Assembly: GCF_056746865.1 (NCBI RefSeq)
Contig: NZ_CM163382.1
Length of the DNA: 64,000 bases
Direction: 5' to 3' (one strand)
Shown piece by piece: positions 17,817-64,000 of this stretch. How positions within the stretch are numbered: the first letter of the stretch is position 1; the number at the start of each line of letters is the position of its first letter. The notes beneath the pieces were generated by a model. It was not told where the DNA came from. It was given only the letters and a program-made list of their open reading frames with translations, and did no database searches. The translations under genes were made by a program, and so were the position numbers.

Positions 17817-18977
17817 ATGGAAAGAGTCAGTATTACCGAGCGCCCGGACTGGCGCGAAAAAGCCCACGAATACGGTTTCAATTTTCACACCATGTACGGC
17901 GAACCGTACTGGTGTGAAGATGCTTACTACAAGTTGACCCTCGCCCAGGTTGAAAAGCTGGAAGAAGTCACCGCCGAACTGCACCAGATGTGCCTGAAAG
18001 TGGTTGAAAAAGTGATCGCCAGCGATGAGCTGATGACCAAATTCCGCATTCCAAAACACACCTGGAGTTTTGTGCGCCAGTCATGGCTGACTCACCAGCC
18101 ATCGCTTTATTCGCGTCTTGATCTGGCGTGGGATGGTACTGGCGAACCTAAACTTCTGGAAAATAACGCCGATACGCCAACGTCACTGTATGAAGCCGCA
18201 TTCTTTCAGTGGATCTGGCTGGAAGATCAGCTTAACGCCGGTAACCTGCCGGAAGGCAGCGACCAGTTTAACAGTCTGCAAGAAAAGCTAATCGATCGCT
18301 TTGTCGAGTTGCGTGAACAGTATGGCTTCCAGTTGCTGCATCTCACCTGCTGTCGCGACACGGTGGAAGATCGCGGAACCATTCAGTATTTGCAGGACTG
18401 CGCGACAGAAGCTGAAATCGCTACTGAATTCCTCTACATCGACGATATCGGTTTAGGCGAAAAAGGTCAGTTCACGGATTTACAAGATCAGGTGATTTCT
18501 AACCTGTTCAAGCTGTATCCGTGGGAATTTATGCTGCGTGAGATGTTCTCCACCAAGCTGGAGGATGCAGGCGTACGCTGGCTGGAACCGGCGTGGAAGA
18601 GCATTATCTCCAACAAAGCGCTTCTACCGCTGTTGTGGGAGATGTTCCCGAATCACCCGAACCTGCTGCCCGCTTATTTTGCGGAAGATGATCATCCGCA
18701 AATGGAAAAATATGTGGTTAAACCGATCTTCTCCCGTGAAGGCGCAAACGTGTCGATCATTGAGAACGGCAAAACCATTGAAGCAGCGGAAGGTCCGTAT
18801 GGCGAAGAAGGGATGATTGTTCAGCAATTCCACCCGTTACCGAAATTCGGCGACAGCTATATGCTGATTGGTAGCTGGCTGGTTAACGATCAACCTGCCG
18901 GAATTGGCATTCGTGAAGACCGTGCATTGATCACCCAGGATATGTCTCGGTTTTATCCGCATATTTTTGTTGAGTAA
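17817..18977 (+). CDS. ygiC: Glutathionylspermidine synthase-like ATP-grasp protein YgiC
   Basis: 386 aa; [32 protein letters not shown]. Confidence 0.85.
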
Positions 18978-25569: not shown

Positions 25570-25790
25570 CTTAGGAGTGGCGGCATATAGCCAAAATAAC
25601 GTGAGCGGGTCCATGCCCGACAGAATCGTTACTCTCTCCCATCCGGACTCTAACCGTCGGCCCCGGAATTACACCGGATCTGCTGTCCTTTGAGTTCGCA
25701 CCCAAAGCGCTCGCGGGCTTTCAACTGAGTTGATTTACCGCCGGTGGGGAATTTCGCCCCGCCCTGAGAATAAGCGGATTCACTATAACG
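25570..25790 (-). ncRNA. sroG: FMN riboswitch (RFN element, sroG) in ribB 5' leader
   Basis: Minus-strand sequence contains conserved aptamer blocks CAGATCCGGTGTAATTCCGGGGCCGACGGTTAGAGTCCGGATGGGAGAGAGTAACG upstream of ribB. Confidence 0.8.
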
Positions 25791-29204: not shown

Positions 29205-29350
29205 CTGAAACGGGAAAGCCCCTCCCGAAGAAGGGGCCTTATAGAAGGAAAGGGTTATGATGAAGCTCGTCATCATACTGATTGTGTTGTTACTAGTAAG
29301 TTTCCAGGCTTATTAACAACCAATTCAGAGGGGGGAGAAATCCTCCCTTA
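29205..29350 (-). ncRNA. sibD: Sib antisense RNA (antitoxin to Ibs), copy 1; boundaries approximate
   Basis: Antisense to ibs ORF; GC hairpin GCCCCT-CCCGAAGA-AGGGGC at 29217-29240 fits a minus-strand terminator; boundaries inferred. Confidence 0.5.
29257..29316 (+). CDS. ibsD: Ibs-family type I toxin (19 aa hydrophobic peptide MMKLVIILIVLLLVSFQAY)
   Basis: ATG ATG AAG CTC GTC ATC ATA CTG... TAA; matches Ibs toxin family; located between yqiK and hldE as ibsD/ibsE are in E. coli. Confidence 0.7.
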   Translation: MMKLVIILIVLLLVSFQAY

Positions 29351-29582
29351 CCCTTGTTCCTTTACTTTAGGTTGAAAAAAAATCAGCGTCAAGAAGGTTT
29401 CTCTATCCCACATCCCTGGCCCAAAAAGCCGGGGATTTTTTATATCTGCGTTCCGCTAAAAGGTGCAAATGATCAGGCTGTTGCAGCATTTTGCGTGACG
29501 GCTCGGGGAAGGCAAAACTGCATCAGGGAAAGCATTGCGCGGGGTCTGGCGCTCATCAACAATCGGGGAGTCAGCAAGGGGC

Positions 29583-29727
29583 TGAAACGGGAAAGCCCCT
29601 CCCGAAGAAGGGGCCTTGTATAAGGAAAGGGTTATGATGAAGCTGGTCATCATACTGATTGTGTTGTTACTCGTAAGTTTCGCAGCTTATTAACAGCCAA
29701 TCAGAGGGGGGAGAAATCCTCCCTCAC
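29583..29727 (-). ncRNA. sibE: Sib antisense RNA, copy 2; boundaries approximate
   Basis: Antisense to second ibs ORF; same hairpin structure as copy 1. Confidence 0.5.
29634..29693 (+). CDS. ibsE: Ibs-family type I toxin (MMKLVIILIVLLLVSFAAY)
   Basis: Second copy of 19-codon hydrophobic ORF; differs from copy 1 by Q17A. Confidence 0.7.
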   Translation: MMKLVIILIVLLLVSFAAY

Positions 29728-29812
29728 CCTTGTTCCTTTACTTTAGGTTGAAAAAAAAACAGCGTCAATAGGCCTGCCAGGTTCGAAGCGAGATCTGTGA
29801 ACCGCTTTCCGG

Positions 29813-49878: not shown

Positions 49879-50003
49879 ATTTACTCCTTTCTAACATCAC
49901 CAGGAAAAGTATAACGGATTGAAAATACATTGTTTATAAAAACAGCAGGCGCGCGGTAATGGCTGGATTGCGACACGGAGTTACTTTATAATCCGCTACC
50001 ATG

Positions 50004-50078
50004 GCCCCTTAGCTCAGTGGTTAGAGCAGGCGACTCATAATCGCTTGGTCGTTGGTTCAAACCCAACAGGGGCCACCA
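50004..50078 (+). tRNA. ileX: tRNA-Ile (anticodon CAU; lysidine-modified Ile2 type)
   Basis: GGCCCCTTAGCTCAGTGGTTAGAGCAGGCGACTCATAATCGCTTGGTCGTTGGTTCAAACCCAACAGGGGCCACCA; cloverleaf with CAT anticodon in loop CTCATAA; encoded CCA. Confidence 0.9.
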
Positions 50079-51327: not shown

Positions 51328-51816
51328 TTACCAGTCGAAAGTGGGTAAATCCGGCAGACACCCGGCGCTGGCATCCAGATGAATAAGACTGACGCCATAA
51401 CGCCGGATGAGAGTGACAACCAGACGGCGGAAGGTTTTTGACAGGCCCAGACGTTTAAGGTGTAGCACCGGATACGACAAAGCATCGGTACGTAACAGAT
51501 ACCCTCTGCCTGTAAAATGAATCCATTCTGATTCGCCGGTGTCATTCGTCTGATGCGACAGCGAGTACAGCCAGGTGTTGTCCGTTTCCGTGATATGTGC
51601 GGTACTGCAGCGTATGCCGGTAAGGGCAGCAAATGGTGGCGTGCAGTCTGCTGAGGTCCGGTCAGATTCATCAACAACACGAAGGGAGTAGCCGTTATCG
51701 CAGATCATGTTAATCAGTTCAGCGAGATTAACACCATCAATGTCAACGACAATTCGCCCCATATTCAGTGCCTGTACGTTAACGCTGTCGGCTTCCAGTG
51801 TCAGGGTCAGTTGCAT
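51328..51816 (-). CDS. YeeW-like uncharacterised protein downstream of cbtA
   Basis: 162 aa ORF immediately after cbtA stop, position equivalent to yeeW in CP4-44. Confidence 0.45.
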
Positions 51817-52190
51817 CGTTTCGACTCCTGATGCTTACCCAGGGTAATGTTATTTACCGTTCTGTAATTGTCGCGGGTCATCAGGCCGGTTGCCCGGCGA
51901 GCCCGGAGAATATCAATACTGTTTATTAACTGAGAGCGGGTACAGGCGCTGAATCCCGGCTGGTCGGTACGTACCAGTGCGTATTTTTCAACGAGAAAGT
52001 TCACCGCATCGCACAGTGAAATGCCTGCCTCAATATGCTGCTCAATCACACGTTCATCAGCGAACGGTGTGTCATTCAGCGTAAGGCCGTAATGCTGGTC
52101 CAGCAGTCGGGTGAGCAGTGTCTGCCAGATTTCAACCGGAGACGGGCGTGAACTGGCCGCCTGCCCGGGTAATACAGGTAATGTTTTCAT
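51807..52190 (-). CDS. cbtA: CbtA/YeeV-family type IV toxin (cytoskeleton-binding toxin)
   Basis: ORF trimmed to [23 protein letters not shown]...; family conserved sequence. Confidence 0.8.
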
Positions 52191-52279
52191 ACTGAAGATT
52201 TTCCTGATATGCAGAGATGAAAAATGGAAAAGTGGCGTGGTGAAAGCACCAGGCCGGAGCAGAAGGTTATTCTGGATAG

Positions 52280-52648
52280 TTACCTTTTCGTTTCGGGCGT
52301 CGGATAAACAGCCATATAAACGTAGCCACAACTGCCGAGGGTGTCGGCTTCGCAGGTCAGCCCTTTTGCATACAGCGTGACGGTATGCTGATGGCGGGAA
52401 TTCAGTTCACCGCTGGTGAGCATGAGTTCCAGTTGTTTCATCAGCAGCGGAAAGGCCTGGTCCAGGTGGTACGAATCCGCGTCGCTGAACCGGCCTCTGA
52501 TACCGGCGCGGTCGGCAAGGTAATGCAACCGGTTGCCCTCCTGCACCAGACGGGCGCCAAAACAAGGTGTCACGGTACAGGGCAGCCCCCACCAGGGGCG
52601 GTCGTGATTGTCATCGGGATGCGTTGTCCCGGGCAGTGTGTCTGACAC
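52280..52648 (-). CDS. cbeA: CbeA/YeeU-family antitoxin
   Basis: 122 aa; [48 protein letters not shown]. Confidence 0.8.
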
Positions 52649-53508: not shown

Positions 53509-53994
53509 TCAGTCAATGATGCGCATAATGGCGTTGCATTCCGGATGCTGCAGGGCGTAATCCCGCAGCCGGTAATAATGGACCGTCATGGCATAACACT
53601 CCGTACGACAGGCATGATGGCTGTACGTCATCAGACAGGCAGCAATGCCGGCGGCTTCCGGGCTCATTTCAGCGCGGTTACCGTTCATGGCACTGAACAG
53701 TACCCATGTTTCGTCATCATCGTCATCCGGTTCGGGTGCCATAAATGCCCCGCCGTTGTTCAGGGTGTACAGATTCCAGATACCACCACAGTAGTCTTCG
53801 CACAGACGATCCATCCAGCCGAAGACACGGGGCTCCAGGGTCACCCACTGTGGAATGAGGCCAAAATGCTGCGGCCAGAAGCTGATGCGCTGTTCATCAG
53901 GGACGAGGGTGGCAACCAGTTGAGGCGGGTTATTCTCTGATACAGCGGTTACGGAAACAGAAGGTGTGGTGGAATTATGCAAAACGGTTGTCAT
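53509..53994 (-). CDS. Antirestriction protein (ArdB/KlcA/YfjX family)
   Basis: 161 aa; family-typical C-terminal region; position upstream of radC-like gene as in CP4-57 yfjX. Confidence 0.7.
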   Translation of the reverse strand: MTTVLHNSTTPSVSVTAVSENNPPQLVATLVPDEQRISFWPQHFGLIPQWVTLEPRVFGWMDRLCEDYCGGIWNLYTLNNGGAFMAPEPDDDDDETWVLFSAMNGNRAEMSPEAAGIAACLMTYSHHACRTECYAMTVHYYRLRDYALQHPECNAIMRIID

Positions 53995-55229: not shown

Positions 55230-58076
55230 TCAGAAAGTCACATTCAGCGTGGCCTGACCGTTATAGCCTTCAGCGCTGTTGCCGCTGACACTGTGGGCAT
55301 AACCGGCCTGAACGCCCAGAGTGATATTTTCCCGGACACGGGCTTCCAGTCCGGCCTGCAGGTCCAGTGACGTGCCATTCTGTGACGGTGAGAACGTCAT
55401 GTTACTGCCGGCTTCAGCTGTACCCATGCTCATGTCACCCCGGGAGCTGAAAGTGCGGATAACAGAAGGCTGTACCCACCAGTTCACCGGCAGTTCACTC
55501 ACACGGTGTTTTGTACTGTCGCGCAGAGTGTCACGGGATGAGGTGCCTTCGCCAAAGGTCATATCGTTGTGGCTGCCCAGACGGAAGCCGGCACGCACAT
55601 GTTGTGTACTGCCATGCCCGAACTTCACATAACCGGCGTTATCCTGGCCGTCATCCAGGGAGAGCCCCTGCCAGGTGTACTGCAGTTGTGGCTCCAGCAT
55701 CAGGTTGTCAGTGATACTGAAGGGCAGACCGGTTTCCAGTGAGCCCAGCCAGCCCCAGCCCCGGGCGCGGAAGTCGTTATTGTCCGATGACGCTTTCATG
55801 CTGTGGCGGGTTCCCTGTGCCACAATGTCAGCCCACAGGCCGGAGGACGTGTGTGTCAGATTCAGGTATCCGCCCAGGCTGCCGGCATCATCCCGGACTG
55901 TGCCGGCGCGGGAACCGTCATCATCCTTAACATCAACGGAAGAATGACCTGCAGCACCATACACCCCTGTCGTCAGAGACATACCTGCAACCTCTGTTCT
56001 CAGCAGGTCACCCTCCAGACGGACGAAGCCATAGCTGCCGCTGCTTTCCGGCGTGGCTCCACGGGCAATACCGCCGTTGTTATCGTGACCGAGATGACCG
56101 CCCTGAATGCTGAGACGGACGCTGTTATTTTCACCGTTTACACCGGTCTGATGGCTGCGGGAGCCTGCCAGAATCCGGTCATAGTCCATTGCCTGTGTCA
56201 GCATGGAGGCATACAGGGGGACTTCAGCACGATAAGCATTTTCACTGCGCAGGTACCAGTCTTCATCGCTGTCACGGTTCAGGGTGTAGTTAAAGGCACC
56301 GGCCTGAAGCGGGCGACTCAGGGCAAACGCACCTTCTTCTGTGGTGGCACCATTCTGTGCATCCACAACCCGGATACCCTGTCCGGAGGTTGCCACCCCG
56401 AGGTTACTGTTTCCGACATTTGTGAACGCAAGCCAGGTTTTGCCGGTTGCCTGACCACCATTAATCACCAGCTGGTCAGAGGCATTGCTGCCATCAAGGC
56501 GAACACGCATATTGATGGTGCCACCCTGACCGGTGAGGTTACTGGTTGTCAGTTTATGGAACGTTACCGGGGCGTTGCCTTTTGCAACAGCACGGCTCAG
56601 TATGGCATCCGGTGTTGTCTGATTGTCAAAGTAAATCTCCCCTGCGTTAACAATATCGCCGGTACTGACCACATCACCATTCAGTACCATGCTGGCGCCT
56701 TTACTGAGCTGTGTTCTGCCACTCAGACTTCCCCCGGCAGCCAGCATCAGTGTTCCACGATGTCCGACAGTGGTGTTGCCAGCCTGTCCCCCGGCATTAA
56801 CCGTAAAGCTGCCGCCATTTTCCAGCAGCAGGCCGCTGGCCTGACCGGATATGCCATCAATACTGAACTTACCGCTGGCATTGGTCCCCTCAACAGTGGC
56901 ACCACTGTCTGCAATCAGGGCACCACCGGATGTCATGGTGACACCTGTCGCCTTACCACCGGCAGACACTGCCAGGGTTCCGCCGTCATCCACCCGTGTT
57001 TTCTGCGCTGAATGGCCCTCCAGTACATCCAGGCGACCGCCGGACTCCAGAACAACACCGTCAGCCTTACCGTTTTCCACCGTGAAATTCCCCAGACGGT
57101 TGCTGCCGGTGACGGTTGCCGCCGTACTGGTGACCAGTGCGCCGCCCTGCTTCAGGGTGACATTCGTGGCTGTACCACCGGCGTTCACCTGCAGTTTGCC
57201 TTTCTGGTTAACGGTGGAGAAATCCGCCAGACCACCTTCCTTGATAATCTGCCAGCCGTCACTGTTTACAACAGTGCCAGACGCCGTACCGCCGTTGTGC
57301 ACATACTGGTACCCCCCATTCAGCGTGGTATCCAGTGCGTGACCATGTACAGTCTGGTCGCCGCCGGCATAAACCACAGTGGTATTTGCCGTTCCTTCAG
57401 CAGCCACAATCTGACGACCATTTTTATTGATGGTGGTGCGTACGGCATCTCCGTAGACGGTCTGCCCGGTATCACCATTTTCTGCATCCGGTCCCCCTTC
57501 CGCGCCGGTATTCACAACCGTGTCGGTTGCCATTGCGCCGGATTTGACGGCCTGCCAGCCCTTCTCATTAATGACGGTACCCGTTGCAATCCCGCCTTCA
57601 TGTATCCACTGCTCACCGCCGTTCAGAGTGGTGTTCACTGCCTGCCCCTGAAGGCTCTGTCCGCCTCCGGCACTGATAACCGTGTCTGAAACGCTTCCTC
57701 CGGCATTCACTCTCTGAAGACCACCACCGGTGACAGTAGTGTTGTTGGCGGTACCGCCATTTTGTATCCATTGGCCGCCGGTATTCGCCTCGTTATCCGG
57801 CCCATACTCCAGCCCGGTACTGATGGTCATTCCGTTGGCCGTACCGAAGACAATCTGGTTGTCATGATTTGTCAGTGTTCCGCCGCTCACGGTTTCTCCC
57901 GCCTGTACGACCGTGTCAGCAGCCAGTACCGGGACTGACGTGACAGCAGCAAGAGACAGCGCAACCGCCACACCGGTGCGTTTTCCCCGTGAGCGCGCCA
58001 GTTCGGAAGCCACCACCAGGGTGCCCGTAATGTGATTCCATACCAGCCTGTAGCTGGTGTTCAGATGTCGTTTCAT
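55230..58076 (-). CDS. flu: Antigen 43 self-associating autotransporter adhesin (short ~950 aa variant)
   Basis: ORF trimmed to MKRHLNTSYRLVWNHITGTLVVASELARSRGKR extended signal peptide; beta-helical passenger repeats; C-terminal beta-barrel ending ...YNGQATLNVTF. Confidence 0.9.
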   Translation of the reverse strand: MKRHLNTSYRLVWNHITGTLVVASELARSRGKRTGVAVALSLAAVTSVPVLAADTVVQAGETVSGGTLTNHDNQIVFGTANGMTISTGLEYGPDNEANTGGQWIQNGGTANNTTVTGGGLQRVNAGGSVSDTVISAGGGQSLQGQAVNTTLNGGEQWIHEGGIATGTVINEKGWQAVKSGAMATDTVVNTGAEGGPDAENGDTGQTVYGDAVRTTINKNGRQIVAAEGTANTTVVYAGGDQTVHGHALDTTLNGGYQYVHNGGTASGTVVNSDGWQIIKEGGLADFSTVNQKGKLQVNAGGTATNVTLKQGGALVTSTAATVTGSNRLGNFTVENGKADGVVLESGGRLDVLEGHSAQKTRVDDGGTLAVSAGGKATGVTMTSGGALIADSGATVEGTNASGKFSIDGISGQASGLLLENGGSFTVNAGGQAGNTTVGHRGTLMLAAGGSLSGRTQLSKGASMVLNGDVVSTGDIVNAGEIYFDNQTTPDAILSRAVAKGNAPVTFHKLTTSNLTGQGGTINMRVRLDGSNASDQLVINGGQATGKTWLAFTNVGNSNLGVATSGQGIRVVDAQNGATTEEGAFALSRPLQAGAFNYTLNRDSDEDWYLRSENAYRAEVPLYASMLTQAMDYDRILAGSRSHQTGVNGENNSVRLSIQGGHLGHDNNGGIARGATPESSGSYGFVRLEGDLLRTEVAGMSLTTGVYGAAGHSSVDVKDDDGSRAGTVRDDAGSLGGYLNLTHTSSGLWADIVAQGTRHSMKASSDNNDFRARGWGWLGSLETGLPFSITDNLMLEPQLQYTWQGLSLDDGQDNAGYVKFGHGSTQHVRAGFRLGSHNDMTFGEGTSSRDTLRDSTKHRVSELPVNWWVQPSVIRTFSSRGDMSMGTAEAGSNMTFSPSQNGTSLDLQAGLEARVRENITLGVQAGYAHSVSGNSAEGYNGQATLNVTF

Positions 58077-58293
58077 CAGCTTTTCCTTACAGAGGGTGAA
58101 TAAAAAAGCCGGTACCCACAAATGTGGATACCGGCAGGTACAAAACAGCATGGTCAGATAAAGTGGTTTTTCCCGGACATAAATGCTTCCCCTCTCTCAT
58201 CCGCCAGAGAAGTATCAGTCCGTTGTGTGCAATTCCGTTCTGCATGATGAAGAGATTCAACTGCCTTTTCGCAGGCCATTAACCACTATAAAC

Positions 58294-58329
58294 GATCGAT
58301 AGTAACGATCGATACCTGTTTTATTGATC
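58294..58329. promoter_or_regulatory. Three clustered Dam GATC sites (Ag43 phase-variation switch / OxyR operator)
   Basis: GATC at 58294, 58307 and 58326 within 36 bp (AACGATCGATAGTAACGATCGATACCTGTTTTATTGATCG) ~220 bp upstream of Ag43 start. Confidence 0.7.
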
Positions 58330-58448
58330 GTTTTATTCTATTGATTGCAAGGCGGTCACGCAAGAGAAACAGGAGGATCATGAGGTGTTTGTGTCATGTT
58401 TTCAGTTGGTTAACGCAATGTAATCAGGCATTTCCCCTGGCAGACTGT

Positions 58449-59321: not shown

Positions 59322-59584
59322 ATATGTATTCCCGGTGAAAAAAGACAAAACCCCGCGCACCGGAAAGGTGGCGGGGGATTCACGGAGATAATATCTGTCT
59401 GAAATTATTTAGAATGCACCTGGTGCACTGCAAAGGAAAGGCAGTATTCCGTTCCTCCTCCTTGTCGTGAATACCCCAGGTATCTCACAATGTACACCGA
59501 CTTACTCCGGGGCTGCCTGAACCACAAGATTGCTGTAGAATTGCCCCCAATGATTCAGGTCCAAACCAGGCAAATGGATTAAAA

Positions 59585-61141
59585 ATGACAAGTATTCAAC
59601 AACGAGCAGAACTGCACCGCCAGATATGGCAAATTGCCAATGATGTCAGAGGTTCTGTTGACGGATGGGATTTTAAGCAATACGTTCTGGGCGCACTTTT
59701 CTACCGTTTTATCAGCGAAAATTTTTCCAGTTATATTGAAGCCGGTGATGACAGTATCTGTTATGCGAAACTGGATGACAGCGTAATTACTGATGACATT
59801 AAAGACGATGCCATCAAAACTAAAGGCTACTTCATCTACCCCAGTCAGCTTTTCTGCAACGTAGCGGCGAAAGCAAATACTAATGACAGGCTGAATGCAG
59901 ATTTAAACAGCATCTTCGTTGCTATCGAAAGTTCTGCTTACGGTTATCCTTCAGAAGCTGACATCAAAGGTTTGTTTGCTGATTTCGATACCACCAGTAA
60001 CCGCCTGGGTAACACCGTTAAGGATAAAAATGCCCGCCTGGCTGCGGTTCTGAAAGGGGTTGAAGGGTTAAAACTTGGTGACTTCAACGAACATCAGATT
60101 GACCTGTTCGGTGATGCCTATGAGTTCCTGATTTCTAACTATGCGGCAAATGCCGGTAAGTCAGGCGGTGAGTTCTTTACACCGCAGCACGTCTCCAGGC
60201 TGATTGCACAACTGGCTATGCACGGGCAGACCAGCGTTAACAAAATCTACGACCCGGCAGCGGGTTCCGGCTCACTGTTGTTGCAGGCGAAAAAACAGTT
60301 TGATAACCACATCATCGAAGAAGGCTTTTTCGGTCAGGAAATCAACCATACGACCTATAACCTGGCGCGTATGAACATGTTTTTGCACAACATCAACTAC
60401 GACAAGTTTGATATCAAGCTGGGTAATACACTGACTGAGCCACACTTCAGAGATGAAAAACCGTTTGATGCCATCGTTTCTAACCCGCCGTATTCGGTGA
60501 AATGGATTGGCAGCGATGACCCGACGCTGATTAACGATGAACGTTTTGCCCCGGCTGGCGTTCTGGCCCCCAAATCAAAAGCTGACTTCGCCTTTGTACT
60601 ACATGCGCTGAACTATCTTTCTGCCAAAGGTCGCGCCGCGATTGTCTGCTTCCCGGGTATTTTTTACCGTGGCGGCGCGGAGCAGAAAATCCGTCAGTAT
60701 CTGGTCGATAATAACTATGTCGAAACCGTGATTTCACTGGCACCGAACCTGTTCTTTGGCACCACCATTGCCGTCAATATTCTGGTGCTGTCTAAACATA
60801 AAACGGATACCAAAGTTCAGTTTATTGACGCCAGCGAACTGTTCAAAAAAGAGACTAATAACAACATCCTGACCGATGCTCATATCGAACAGATTATGCA
60901 GGTATTTGCCGGCAAGGAAGATGTTGCTCATCTGGCGAAATCTGTCACGTTTGAGACTGTTGTCGCGAATGACTATAACCTGTCGGTGAGCAGCTATGTG
61001 GAAGCGAAAGATAACCGCGAAGTGGTGGACATTGCTCAGCTCAACGCCGAGCTGAAATCTACTGTCGCCAGGATTGACCAGCTTCGCAGGGATATTGATG
61101 CCATCGTCGCTGAAATTGAAGGCGAGGAGCAGGAGGCATGA
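59585..61141 (+). CDS. hsdM: Type I restriction-modification methyltransferase subunit HsdM (type IC, EcoR124-like)
   Basis: 518 aa; SAM-binding DPAAGSGS and catalytic NPPY motif; overlaps hsdS by 4 nt. Confidence 0.9.
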
Positions 61142-62343
61142 GTAGCGTGAACTTCTTGGAAAAGCTGTTGGATGGCGTTGAGGTCGAGTGGAAGACACTT
61201 GGGCAAACTTGCAAAATTGAAACAGGAAAGCTTAATGCGAATGCGGCTGTTGATGATGGAGAGTATATGTTCTTCACGACAGCCAAAGAGACAAGCAAAA
61301 TTGATAAATTCCGCTGGGATACAGAGGCATTGCTGATTGCAGGCAATGCGAATGTTGGTGAGGTGAAGCATTACATCGGCAAGTTTGAGGCTTATCAGCG
61401 CACCTATGTTCTGACAAATTTCGACGAAAATGTAAGTGTTAGATTTTTGTATTTTGTGCTTAGCCATAGCCTGAAGAAATATCTCGAGGAAAGAACAAAT
61501 AGCGCGGCAATGACATATATCGTGCTATCAACCTTAGAGAATTTCCCTATCCCCATCCCCTGCCCAGGCAACCCCCAAAAATCCCTTGCCATCCAGTCTG
61601 AAATCGTTCGGATTCTGGATAAATTTACTGCACTTACCGCTGAGCTTACCGCTGAGCTTAACATGCGTAAAAAACAGTACAACTACTATCGCGACCAGTT
61701 GTTGAGTTTTAAAGAGGGTGAGGTTGAGTGGAAGACTTTGGGGGAAATTGGAGATTTTACATATGGATATGCAGCCAAAGCCATGGATTCAGGAGATGCC
61801 CGTTTCGTGAGAATTACTGACATAAATAAAGACGGGAAGCTATCGAAAGAAAACCCAATGTACGTTGAATTAAATGAGGAAAATGAGAAATATACCTTAG
61901 ACAAAAATGATTTACTCATGGCAAGAACTGGGGCAACCTTTGGTAAAACAATGATTTTTGAAGAAGATTATCCAGCAGTATACGCTGGTTTTTTAATAAA
62001 GTTGAACCTAAATAAAACGATTATTAATGCCAAATATTACTGGCACTTTGCACAAAGTGATTTTTTTTGGGAACAGGCTAATAAATTAGTATCTGGTGGT
62101 GGGCAACCACAGTTTAATGCTAATGCACTGAAACAAGTCAGAGTACCTATTCCATACCCATCTCACCCTCAAAAATCTTTAGACGAACAGGGGCGTATTG
62201 TGGATATTCTGGATAAGTTTGATGCAATCGCAGCTTCCATCACCGAAGGTCTCCCGCGTGAAATCGAGTTACGTCAAAAACAATACGAATACTATCGTGA
62301 TTTACTGCTCAGTTTCCCAAAACCTGAAACTGTCAGTAAATAA
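61138..62343 (+). CDS. hsdS: Type I R-M specificity subunit HsdS (type IC)
   Basis: 401 aa; two TRDs separated by central conserved region with TAELTAEL repeat and conserved KKQYxYYRDxLLSF blocks after each TRD. Confidence 0.85.
61627..61659 (+). repeat. Tandem 12-bp repeat (ACCGCTGAGCTT x2, preceded by partial ACTGCACTT) encoding TAEL-TAEL in hsdS
   Basis: Direct reading of hsdS codons 164-174: [11 protein letters not shown]. Confidence 0.8.
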
Positions 62344-62464
62344 TTGACCATTGCTACCGACCGGGCCTCCTTAACATCCGGTCAGTATATAGACTATTTT
62401 TTACGCGCCGGAAGTCACTCTTAACGCCCTTCCGGCTCTTGCCAGGCGGCACAAAGGATGCGCT

Positions 62465-64000
62465 ATGACTCATCAAACACACACCATTGCTGAATCCAAT
62501 AACTTTATCGTCCTTGATAAGTACATCAAAGCTGAGCAAACAAGCGACAGCTACCAGAGCGAATCGGACCTGGAACGTGAACTGATTCAGGACCTGCGGA
62601 ATCAGGGTTATGAATTTATTTCCGTAAAATCACAGTCGGCAATGCTGTCTAATGTTCGGGAACAGCTTCAGAGCCTCAATGGTGTGATGTTTAATGACAG
62701 CGAGTGGCGGCGCTTCACGGAGCAGTATCTGGACAACCCCAGCGATGGTATTCTGGATAAAACCCGTAAAATCCATATCGACTATATCTGCGACTTTATT
62801 TTTGACGACGGGCGACTTGAGAACATCTATTTGATAGATAAAAAGAATCTCATGCGCAATAAGGTGCAGATTATCCAGCAGTTTGAACAGACGGGTTCTC
62901 ATGCTAACCGTTATGACGTCACGATCCTGGTTAATGGTTTACCGCTGGTGCAAATCGAACTAAAAAAACGCGGGGTGGCGATTCGTGAGGCTTTCAACCA
63001 GATACATCGTTACAGTAAAGAGAGTTTTAACAGCGAAAATTCCCTGTTTAAGTATCTGCAACTGTTTGTCATTTCTAACGGCACCGATACCCGTTATTTT
63101 GCCAACACGACAAAGCGCGATAAAAACAGTTTTGACTTCACCATGAATTGGGCGAAATCAGACAACACGCTGATTAAAGACCTCAAAGACTTTACCGCTA
63201 CCTTTTTCCAGAAACATACTCTGCTGAATGTTCTGGTGAACTACAGCGTTTTTGACAGTAGTCAGACGCTACTGGTGATGCGACCGTACCAGATTGCCGC
63301 CACCGAGCGCATTCTGTGGAAAATTAAGAGTTCCTTTACAGCGAAGAACTGGTCAAAACCGGAAAGCGGTGGGTATATCTGGCACACTACCGGTTCTGGT
63401 AAAACCCTCACCAGCTTTAAAGCCGCGCGTCTGGCAACAGAGCTGGACTTTATTGATAAAGTCTTCTTTGTGGTCGACAGGAAAGACCTCGATTACCAGA
63501 CCATGAAGGAATATCAGCGTTTTTCGCCAGACAGCGTCAACGGCTCGGAAAATACCGCAGGCCTTAAACGAAATCTGGATAAGGACGATAACAAAATTAT
63601 CGTCACTACTATTCAGAAACTCAATAACCTGATGAAAGCAGAAAGCGACCTGCCTGTATATAATCAGCAAGTGGTGTTTATATTTGATGAATGCCACCGC
63701 AGCCAGTTTGGAGAAGCGCAGAAAAACCTGAAGAAGAAATTCAAACGCTATTATCAGTTTGGTTTTACCGGCACCCCTATTTTCCCGGAAAACGCCTTAG
63801 GCTCAGAAACAACCGCCAGCGTATTTGGCCGTGAATTGCATTCGTATGTGATTACCGATGCGATTCGTGACGAAAAAGTGCTCAAATTCAAGGTGGACTA
63901 CAACGATGTGCGGCCACAGTTTAAGTCTTTAGAGACAGAAACTGACGAGAAAAAACTGAGTGCGGCTGAAAATCAGCAGGCGTTTCTTCACCCCATGCGT
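62465..64000 (+). CDS. hsdR: Type I restriction endonuclease subunit HsdR (type IC), 5' portion only, truncated by window end
   Basis: In-frame translation [20 protein letters not shown]...; helicase motif I TGSGKT and motif II DECH; open to window end (not in ORF track because no stop). Confidence 0.9.

Follow-up and report, generated by a model that had tools for sequence, protein, structure and literature searches.

A predicted EcoR124-family (type IC) restriction-modification system on a genomic island beside ileX in the Escherichia coli chromosome

Genes of the locus and their island setting

Three hsd genes were called on one strand (+), running from position 59585 to the end of the window, that is, the whole 64,000-nucleotide stretch of DNA analysed here. 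The first, hsdM (59585..61141), encodes an m6A DNA methyltransferase subunit of 518 aa and overlaps by 4 bp (ATGA) with hsdS (61138..62343), which encodes a specificity subunit of 401 aa and whose ATG shares bases with the hsdM stop. The 5' part of hsdR (62465..64000, + strand) begins with an ATG at 62465 and covers the nuclease domain and the first RecA-like motor domain; its 512 codons stay open to base 64000, where the window edge cuts the gene at 49% of the expected 1038 codons. An earlier note on this DNA had placed all three ORFs correctly, with 59585 as the exact hsdM start codon. Its description of the operon as complete can be confirmed for hsdM, hsdS and hsdR codons 1-512, which are open, while the remainder of hsdR lies past the window edge. 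Antisense ORFs within hsdM and hsdS (e.g., 60734-61198 and 61036-61467, - strand) were rejected as spurious; they are unannotated in every annotated relative.

The region 5' of hsdM (59361..59584, + strand) separates it from a divergent GTPase (YeeP-like) gene and presumably holds the hsdM-hsdS promoter, even if our scan of these 224 nt found no sigma-70-like promoter on the + strand. Some 2800 E. coli genomes have the first ~55-58 nt in common, and all 224 nt are present in 576, almost all of these occurrences being chromosomal. The plasmid copies of the operon become homologous only from 59572 on, 13 bp 5' of the hsdM ATG; the segment 59361-59571 is chromosome-specific and absent from the plasmid copies. 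The intergenic region between hsdS and hsdR (62344..62464, + strand; 121 bp) is 91% conserved relative to the plasmid copies. It contains a promoter-like match at 62371-62400 (TTAACA, N18, TATTTT; 9/12) compatible with hsdR having a promoter of its own. This candidate is weak, and the sigma-70-like scan overall returned 6 matches against 5.2 expected from shuffled sequence, which is not above chance.

The hsd genes are located on a horizontally acquired island beside ileX in the E. coli chromosome. In colinear relatives, rpsU, dnaG, rpoD and mug are followed by a tRNA-Ile gene (ileX) directly before the island, and the same rpsU-dnaG-rpoD-mug-tRNA series lies directly upstream of the island within the window (tRNA gene at 50003-50078), in agreement with the chromosomal location given by the earlier note. 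The island genes, all on the - strand, are in order DUF4942, DUF957, DUF5983, cbtA with a YeeU-type antitoxin, DUF987, a JAB-domain protein, an antirestriction protein of the ArdB/KlcA family (PF03230), DUF932, Ag43 and the GTPase gene, after which comes the hsd operon (+). In strain PEC148 the same island is found beside a different tRNA-Ile gene, adjoining an alpha-amylase pseudogene. The relatives' loci examined were also searched for a second, directly repeated copy of the 3' end of the tRNA gene, which would give the distal boundary of the island; none was found. An IS5-like element of the ISKpn26 family starts right after the hsdR stop TAG in the chromosomal relatives, and this accounts for the sharp right-hand homology boundary at that stop.

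Family of the HsdM and HsdR subunits

Type I families are told apart by their sequence, by complementation and by the cross-reaction of antibodies, and every feature defining the type IC family that can be tested on sequence was found at this locus. The genes are arranged in the order hsdM-hsdS-hsdR with hsdR after an intergenic gap, HsdM and HsdR are close in sequence to the EcoR124 prototype, and HsdS combines a conserved start and end with a central region carrying 12-bp TAEL repeats. The prototype of type IC is EcoR124I/EcoR124II from plasmid R124 (structures 2w00 and 7bst). It shares with the window the gene order, the conserved regions of HsdS and, in the case of EcoR124I, two TAEL copies; it differs in both HsdS recognition domains, in its location (the window copy being on a chromosomal island) and in the DNA at 59361-59571.

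A search against PDB chains aligned residues 1-515 of HsdM with EcoR124 HsdM (7bst_D) with 13 substitutions in 515 aligned residues (~97.5% identity, 1132 bits, E = 0). The EcoR124 protein has 520 aa against 518 in the window, with residue 1 of the latter opposite residue 3 of the EcoR124 chain. Residues 1-512 of HsdR aligned end to end and without gaps with residues 1-512 of EcoR124I HsdR (2w00_A, 1038 aa), from which they differ by 8 substitutions (98.4% identity, E = 0). With E values of 0, chance similarity to the EcoR124 subunits is excluded. Profile searches agreed: TIGR00497 (hsdM) scored 647 bits on HsdM against a cut-off of 243, TIGR00348 scored 536 bits on the visible part of HsdR, and the PADLOC and NCBIfam type I models gave strong matches for M, S and R. 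The EcoR124-family (type IC) call made by the earlier note from conserved blocks is borne out by these identities, together with the gene order and the TAEL repeat.

The motifs named in that note were all located. In HsdM, NPPY lies at aa 300 and the AdoMet motif DPAAGSG at aa 223. In HsdR, TGSGKT is found at aa 309, DECH at aa 408 and motif III (FTGTP) at aa 434, and the nuclease residues D151/E165/K167 are present, followed by QIHRY (QxxxY motif) at aa 179. Motifs such as NPPY, the Walker A sequence and the DEAD-box variant are generic to type I enzymes and common to all families, and they are all that would speak for a type IA or IB (EcoKI- or EcoAI-like) locus misjudged by eye. Such an identity is refuted by the HsdM and HsdR matches to the EcoR124 subunits and by BLASTP against K-12 HsdM, which gave only 29% identity restricted to 249 aa of the catalytic core; in the PDB-chain search EcoKI HsdM scored 64 bits against the 1132 bits of EcoR124 HsdM. 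The gene order also argues against it, as it is M-S-R here and R-M-S in K-12, and so does the position of the locus, at ileX here and adjoining mcrBC in K-12. We therefore give a type IA or IB identity practically no chance. EcoKI (type IA, K-12 hsdRMS) does share with the locus the same Pfam domains and the same enzyme logic (R2M2S1, m6A, ATP-driven translocation).

HsdS architecture and target specificity

HsdS contains two Methylase_S domains (aa 15-174 and aa 196-377). Its conserved N-terminal, central and C-terminal blocks match those of EcoR124 HsdS, while both recognition domains do not. These domains appear as variable blocks in the alignment of HsdS from the relatives, with approximate limits: the N-terminal target recognition domain spans 61204..61557 (+ strand, ~aa 23-140) and the C-terminal one 61750..62172 (+ strand, ~aa 205-345). 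The N-terminal domain is identical in E. coli CUPS03 and in the P1-like phage-plasmid pMCR_SCKP-LL83, is replaced in CFSAN061769, and aligns poorly to EcoR124 HsdS. The C-terminal domain has just 21% identity to the N-terminal (AAC) recognition domain of EcoKI, a level that demonstrates a common fold but does not allow the specificity to be deduced. The EcoKI-type S model of NCBIfam scored 52 bits on HsdS against a cut-off of 662. An attempt to predict the half-sites from the EcoR124I or EcoKI domains failed, given the lack of resemblance to EcoR124I and the low identity to the AAC domain. No published recognition motif for this HsdS allele was found in a literature search covering protein accessions, E. 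coli methylomes, clinical-strain type I enzymes and phage-plasmid R-M systems.

The central conserved region carries a 12-bp tandem repeat of 2.3 copies at 61633..61660 (+ strand; Tandem Repeats Finder, period 12, 100% matches) that encodes TAEL-TAEL (aa 167-174, with TAEL at 167 and 171). In type IC enzymes the number of TAEL repeats sets the length of the spacer between the half-sites, with two copies in EcoR124I (GAA N6 RTCG) (PMC3874165) and three copies with an N7 spacer in EcoR124II, EcoDXXI and EcoprrI (PMC3874165; Loenen et al. review). The methylated adenines of the two spacer classes are separated by 7 and 8 bp (PMC12707154, EcoSal Plus review). As the window HsdS has two TAEL repeats, its target is predicted to be bipartite and of the EcoR124I spacing class (a 6-bp spacer in EcoR124I, with the methylated adenines 7 bp apart). 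The recognition domains are unrelated to those of EcoR124I, so the target would not be GAA N6 RTCG itself.

In EcoprrI, prrC is placed between hsdS and hsdR. EcoprrI and EcoDXXI, compared here by description, have the same family architecture as the locus, but their TAEL repeats number three and the spacer is N7, against two repeats here (PMC3874165). In EcoprrI the operon embeds the gene for the anticodon nuclease PrrC (PMC3874165), which the R-M enzyme masks, and because EcoprrI is also type IC the R-M proteins of a locus of this kind would look alike (PMC3874165). The gap between hsdS and hsdR is just 121 bp and without any ORF, which upholds the claim of the earlier note that no prrC gene is inserted there. 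With the repeat number also at odds with EcoprrI, we consider an EcoprrI-type identity refuted at this locus and its probability negligible.

The allele of the window is not confined to one replicon type. Its HsdS is 99% identical to that of CUPS03 and 98% identical to that of pMCR_SCKP-LL83, which also has two TAEL repeats, and the same two recognition domains are present in all three proteins, so that they presumably have one common target. A different situation is found in CFSAN061769, whose island is the same and occupies the same position: both recognition domains are replaced with the conserved blocks kept, and HsdS is 48% identical overall. By sequence comparison, CFSAN061769 and the window are a natural example of domain exchange, and this swap within the same island illustrates how the specificity of type I enzymes diversifies.

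Distribution, hsdR beyond the window and proposed function

Positions 59400-64000 were searched by megablast against 5,426 complete E. coli genomes. Matching DNA was present in 1,635 of them (~30%), with a match of at least 80% of the query in 386. These matches fell in 1,199 chromosomal and 766 plasmid places, and the surprise implied by the earlier note at finding a plasmid-borne family on a chromosome is unwarranted. Hundreds of E. coli genomes have this operon annotated as intact. An identical HsdS protein has been deposited at NCBI many times and stands at the head of a cluster of 209 sequences formed at 90% identity, and 48 genomes matched the hsdS DNA across 80% or more of its length. 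The locus belongs to a textbook family, has been catalogued before and occupies a common kind of genomic setting, with nothing new or unusual about it, and its significance is mainly one of correct annotation, since it adds a further copy of a defence system that is well studied. No exact match was found among the complete genomes; the best, PEC148, is 99.9% identical over the operon, at its other tRNA site.

The plasmid search returned 1,083 matching records. In the match that was inspected, pMCR_SCKP-LL83 (MF510496), the identity at the DNA level is 96.2% from 13 bp before the hsdM ATG to exactly the hsdR stop. The operon lies there beside the P1-type genes pmgS and pmgP, whereas the island copy is flanked by the GTPase gene, Ag43 and the IS5-like element, the last as seen in the relatives. 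Several other top matches were also 92-97 kb in size.

For the half of hsdR beyond the window edge, where a full-length HsdR would have its helical and C-terminal domains, the relatives are the guide. In all four of them (PEC148, CUPS03, CFSAN061769 and pMCR_SCKP-LL83) hsdR has 1038 codons and no internal stop, the same length as EcoR124I HsdR. The window is 100% identical to PEC148 over 59361-63800 and then has 5 synonymous differences in the last 170 nt, a stretch in which it also differs from CUPS03, CFSAN061769 and pMCR_SCKP-LL83. Since these last 170 nt differ from all four relatives, the 3' half of hsdR may be a different allele and could be damaged, although we judge damage downstream of the window improbable. 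The alternative that follows is that the modification half alone works, with hsdR disrupted past the window or restriction held off, so that M2S1 would mark the genome and nothing would be cut. In favor of this stand the truncated view of hsdR (512 of 1038 codons), the five differences from all relatives, the IS5-like element abutting the hsdR stop in relatives, which indicates a neighborhood active for insertion sequences, and the PF03230 antirestriction gene on the island. This is unlikely, as hsdR is intact in 4/4 relatives, the five differences are all synonymous and every nuclease and motor motif is intact in the part of hsdR that can be seen.

We favor the reading of the locus as a type IC (EcoR124-family) type I R-M system on a genomic island by ileX in the E. 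coli chromosome, with a probability of about 0.88. By analogy with EcoR124I, HsdS would associate with two HsdM subunits to form an M2S1 methyltransferase that methylates one adenine per strand of the bipartite target. Addition of HsdR would then give R2M2S1, expected to bind unmethylated targets, pull in the flanking DNA at the expense of ATP and cut at a distance, and the outcome, if the genes are expressed and the enzyme is active as in EcoR124I, would be the restriction of incoming phage and plasmid DNA. Assembly of type IC enzymes proceeds via an R1M2S1 intermediate that is unable to cleave, and their restriction alleviation follows a mechanism distinct from the ClpXP route of EcoKI (PMC12707154). 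The strain probably restricts unmodified DNA at a bipartite site, a property that matters for transformation and for predicting which phages and plasmids it accepts.

Two wider readings are suggested by co-occurrence and sequence identity. The specificity allele is common to the island and to P1-like phage-plasmids, some carrying mcr-1, and because the HsdS recognition domains are the same, strains with the island would methylate the same motif as these phage-plasmids. If so, island strains would selectively admit those phage-plasmids, and DNA from island strains would be protected from restriction by the phage-plasmid system in hosts carrying them. Beside this stands the possibility that the ArdB/KlcA-type gene of the island tempers restriction while the island establishes in a new host. 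Members of this family inhibit type I restriction and not modification (PMC12707154). Some phage records of P1 size (89 and 95 kb) gave partial matches to the operon. Jointly, we regard these two readings as tentative and rather doubtful.

Recognition-domain replacement, and sequence differences within and beyond hsdR

Comparison of the type IC hsdS gene of the window (61138-62343) with its counterpart in the E. coli relative CFSAN061769 (19138-20289 of that locus) revealed that both recognition domains had been replaced, the latter gene encoding a product of 383 aa that is 48% identical. In CFSAN061769 the island is the same and occupies an identical chromosomal site, and hsdM, hsdR and the conserved blocks of HsdS have been retained.

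The hsdR gene of the window is otherwise 99-100% identical up to position 63800 to those of the four relatives compared (the chromosomal loci of PEC148, CUPS03 and CFSAN061769 and the P1-like phage-plasmid pMCR_SCKP-LL83), but five synonymous differences from all four are clustered at 63829-63991, in the last 170 nt. This clustering after a stretch of near-identity suggests that a recombination boundary lies within hsdR. Past the end of the window, an IS5-like element of the ISKpn26 family was found directly 3' of the hsdR stop codon TAG in PEC148 (positions 18180-18200 of its locus, L001), as well as in the CFSAN061769 locus (L006) and in a further locus fetched from a relative (L004). In all three, hsdR is not disrupted by the adjoining element, beyond which lie a truncated gene encoding a GntP-family permease and a lactate-utilisation cluster.

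The island border and its accessory genes

The tRNA gene bordering the island (50003-50078, + strand) was called tRNA-Met by ARAGORN, with the anticodon CAT, whereas it is labelled tRNA-Ile in the RefSeq relatives; once modified to lysidine, the CAT anticodon of such a tRNA reads as Ile. In the window, this gene follows rpoD-mug and occupies the ileX position. The same island is found in PEC148 beside another tRNA-Ile gene, with an alpha-amylase pseudogene adjoining. The loci retrieved from relatives showed no second copy of the 3' end of the tRNA.

Between the tRNA and the R-M operon lies a module comprising a CbtA toxin/YeeU-family antitoxin pair with DUF4942, DUF957, DUF5983, DUF987 and JAB genes (51807-52648, - strand; coordinates carried over from the PEC148 annotation), which resembles the K-12 cryptic prophages CP4-44 and CP4-57. 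The island that encodes the type I R-M system also carries an antirestriction gene of the ArdB/KlcA type (53509-53994, - strand; Pfam PF03230). Members of this family have been reported to inhibit type I restriction while sparing modification (PMC12707154).

The Ag43 upstream region and core-genome RNAs

The Ag43 gene (55230-58076, - strand) is intact in the window, whereas its CUPS03 counterpart contains an internal stop. The upstream region (58077-58448) has GATC sites at 58294, 58307, 58326 and 58376, three of them within 33 bp, an arrangement that agrees with what is expected of the agn43 phase-variation switch governed by Dam and OxyR. A match to the Rfam family IS102 RNA is also located upstream of Ag43 (58095-58331, - strand).

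Two copies of the SIB antitoxin RNA (29242-29392 and 29619-29768) and an FMN riboswitch (25627-25775), all on the - strand, lie where the window consists of core genome. All three are usual for E. coli and have no relation to the R-M operon.
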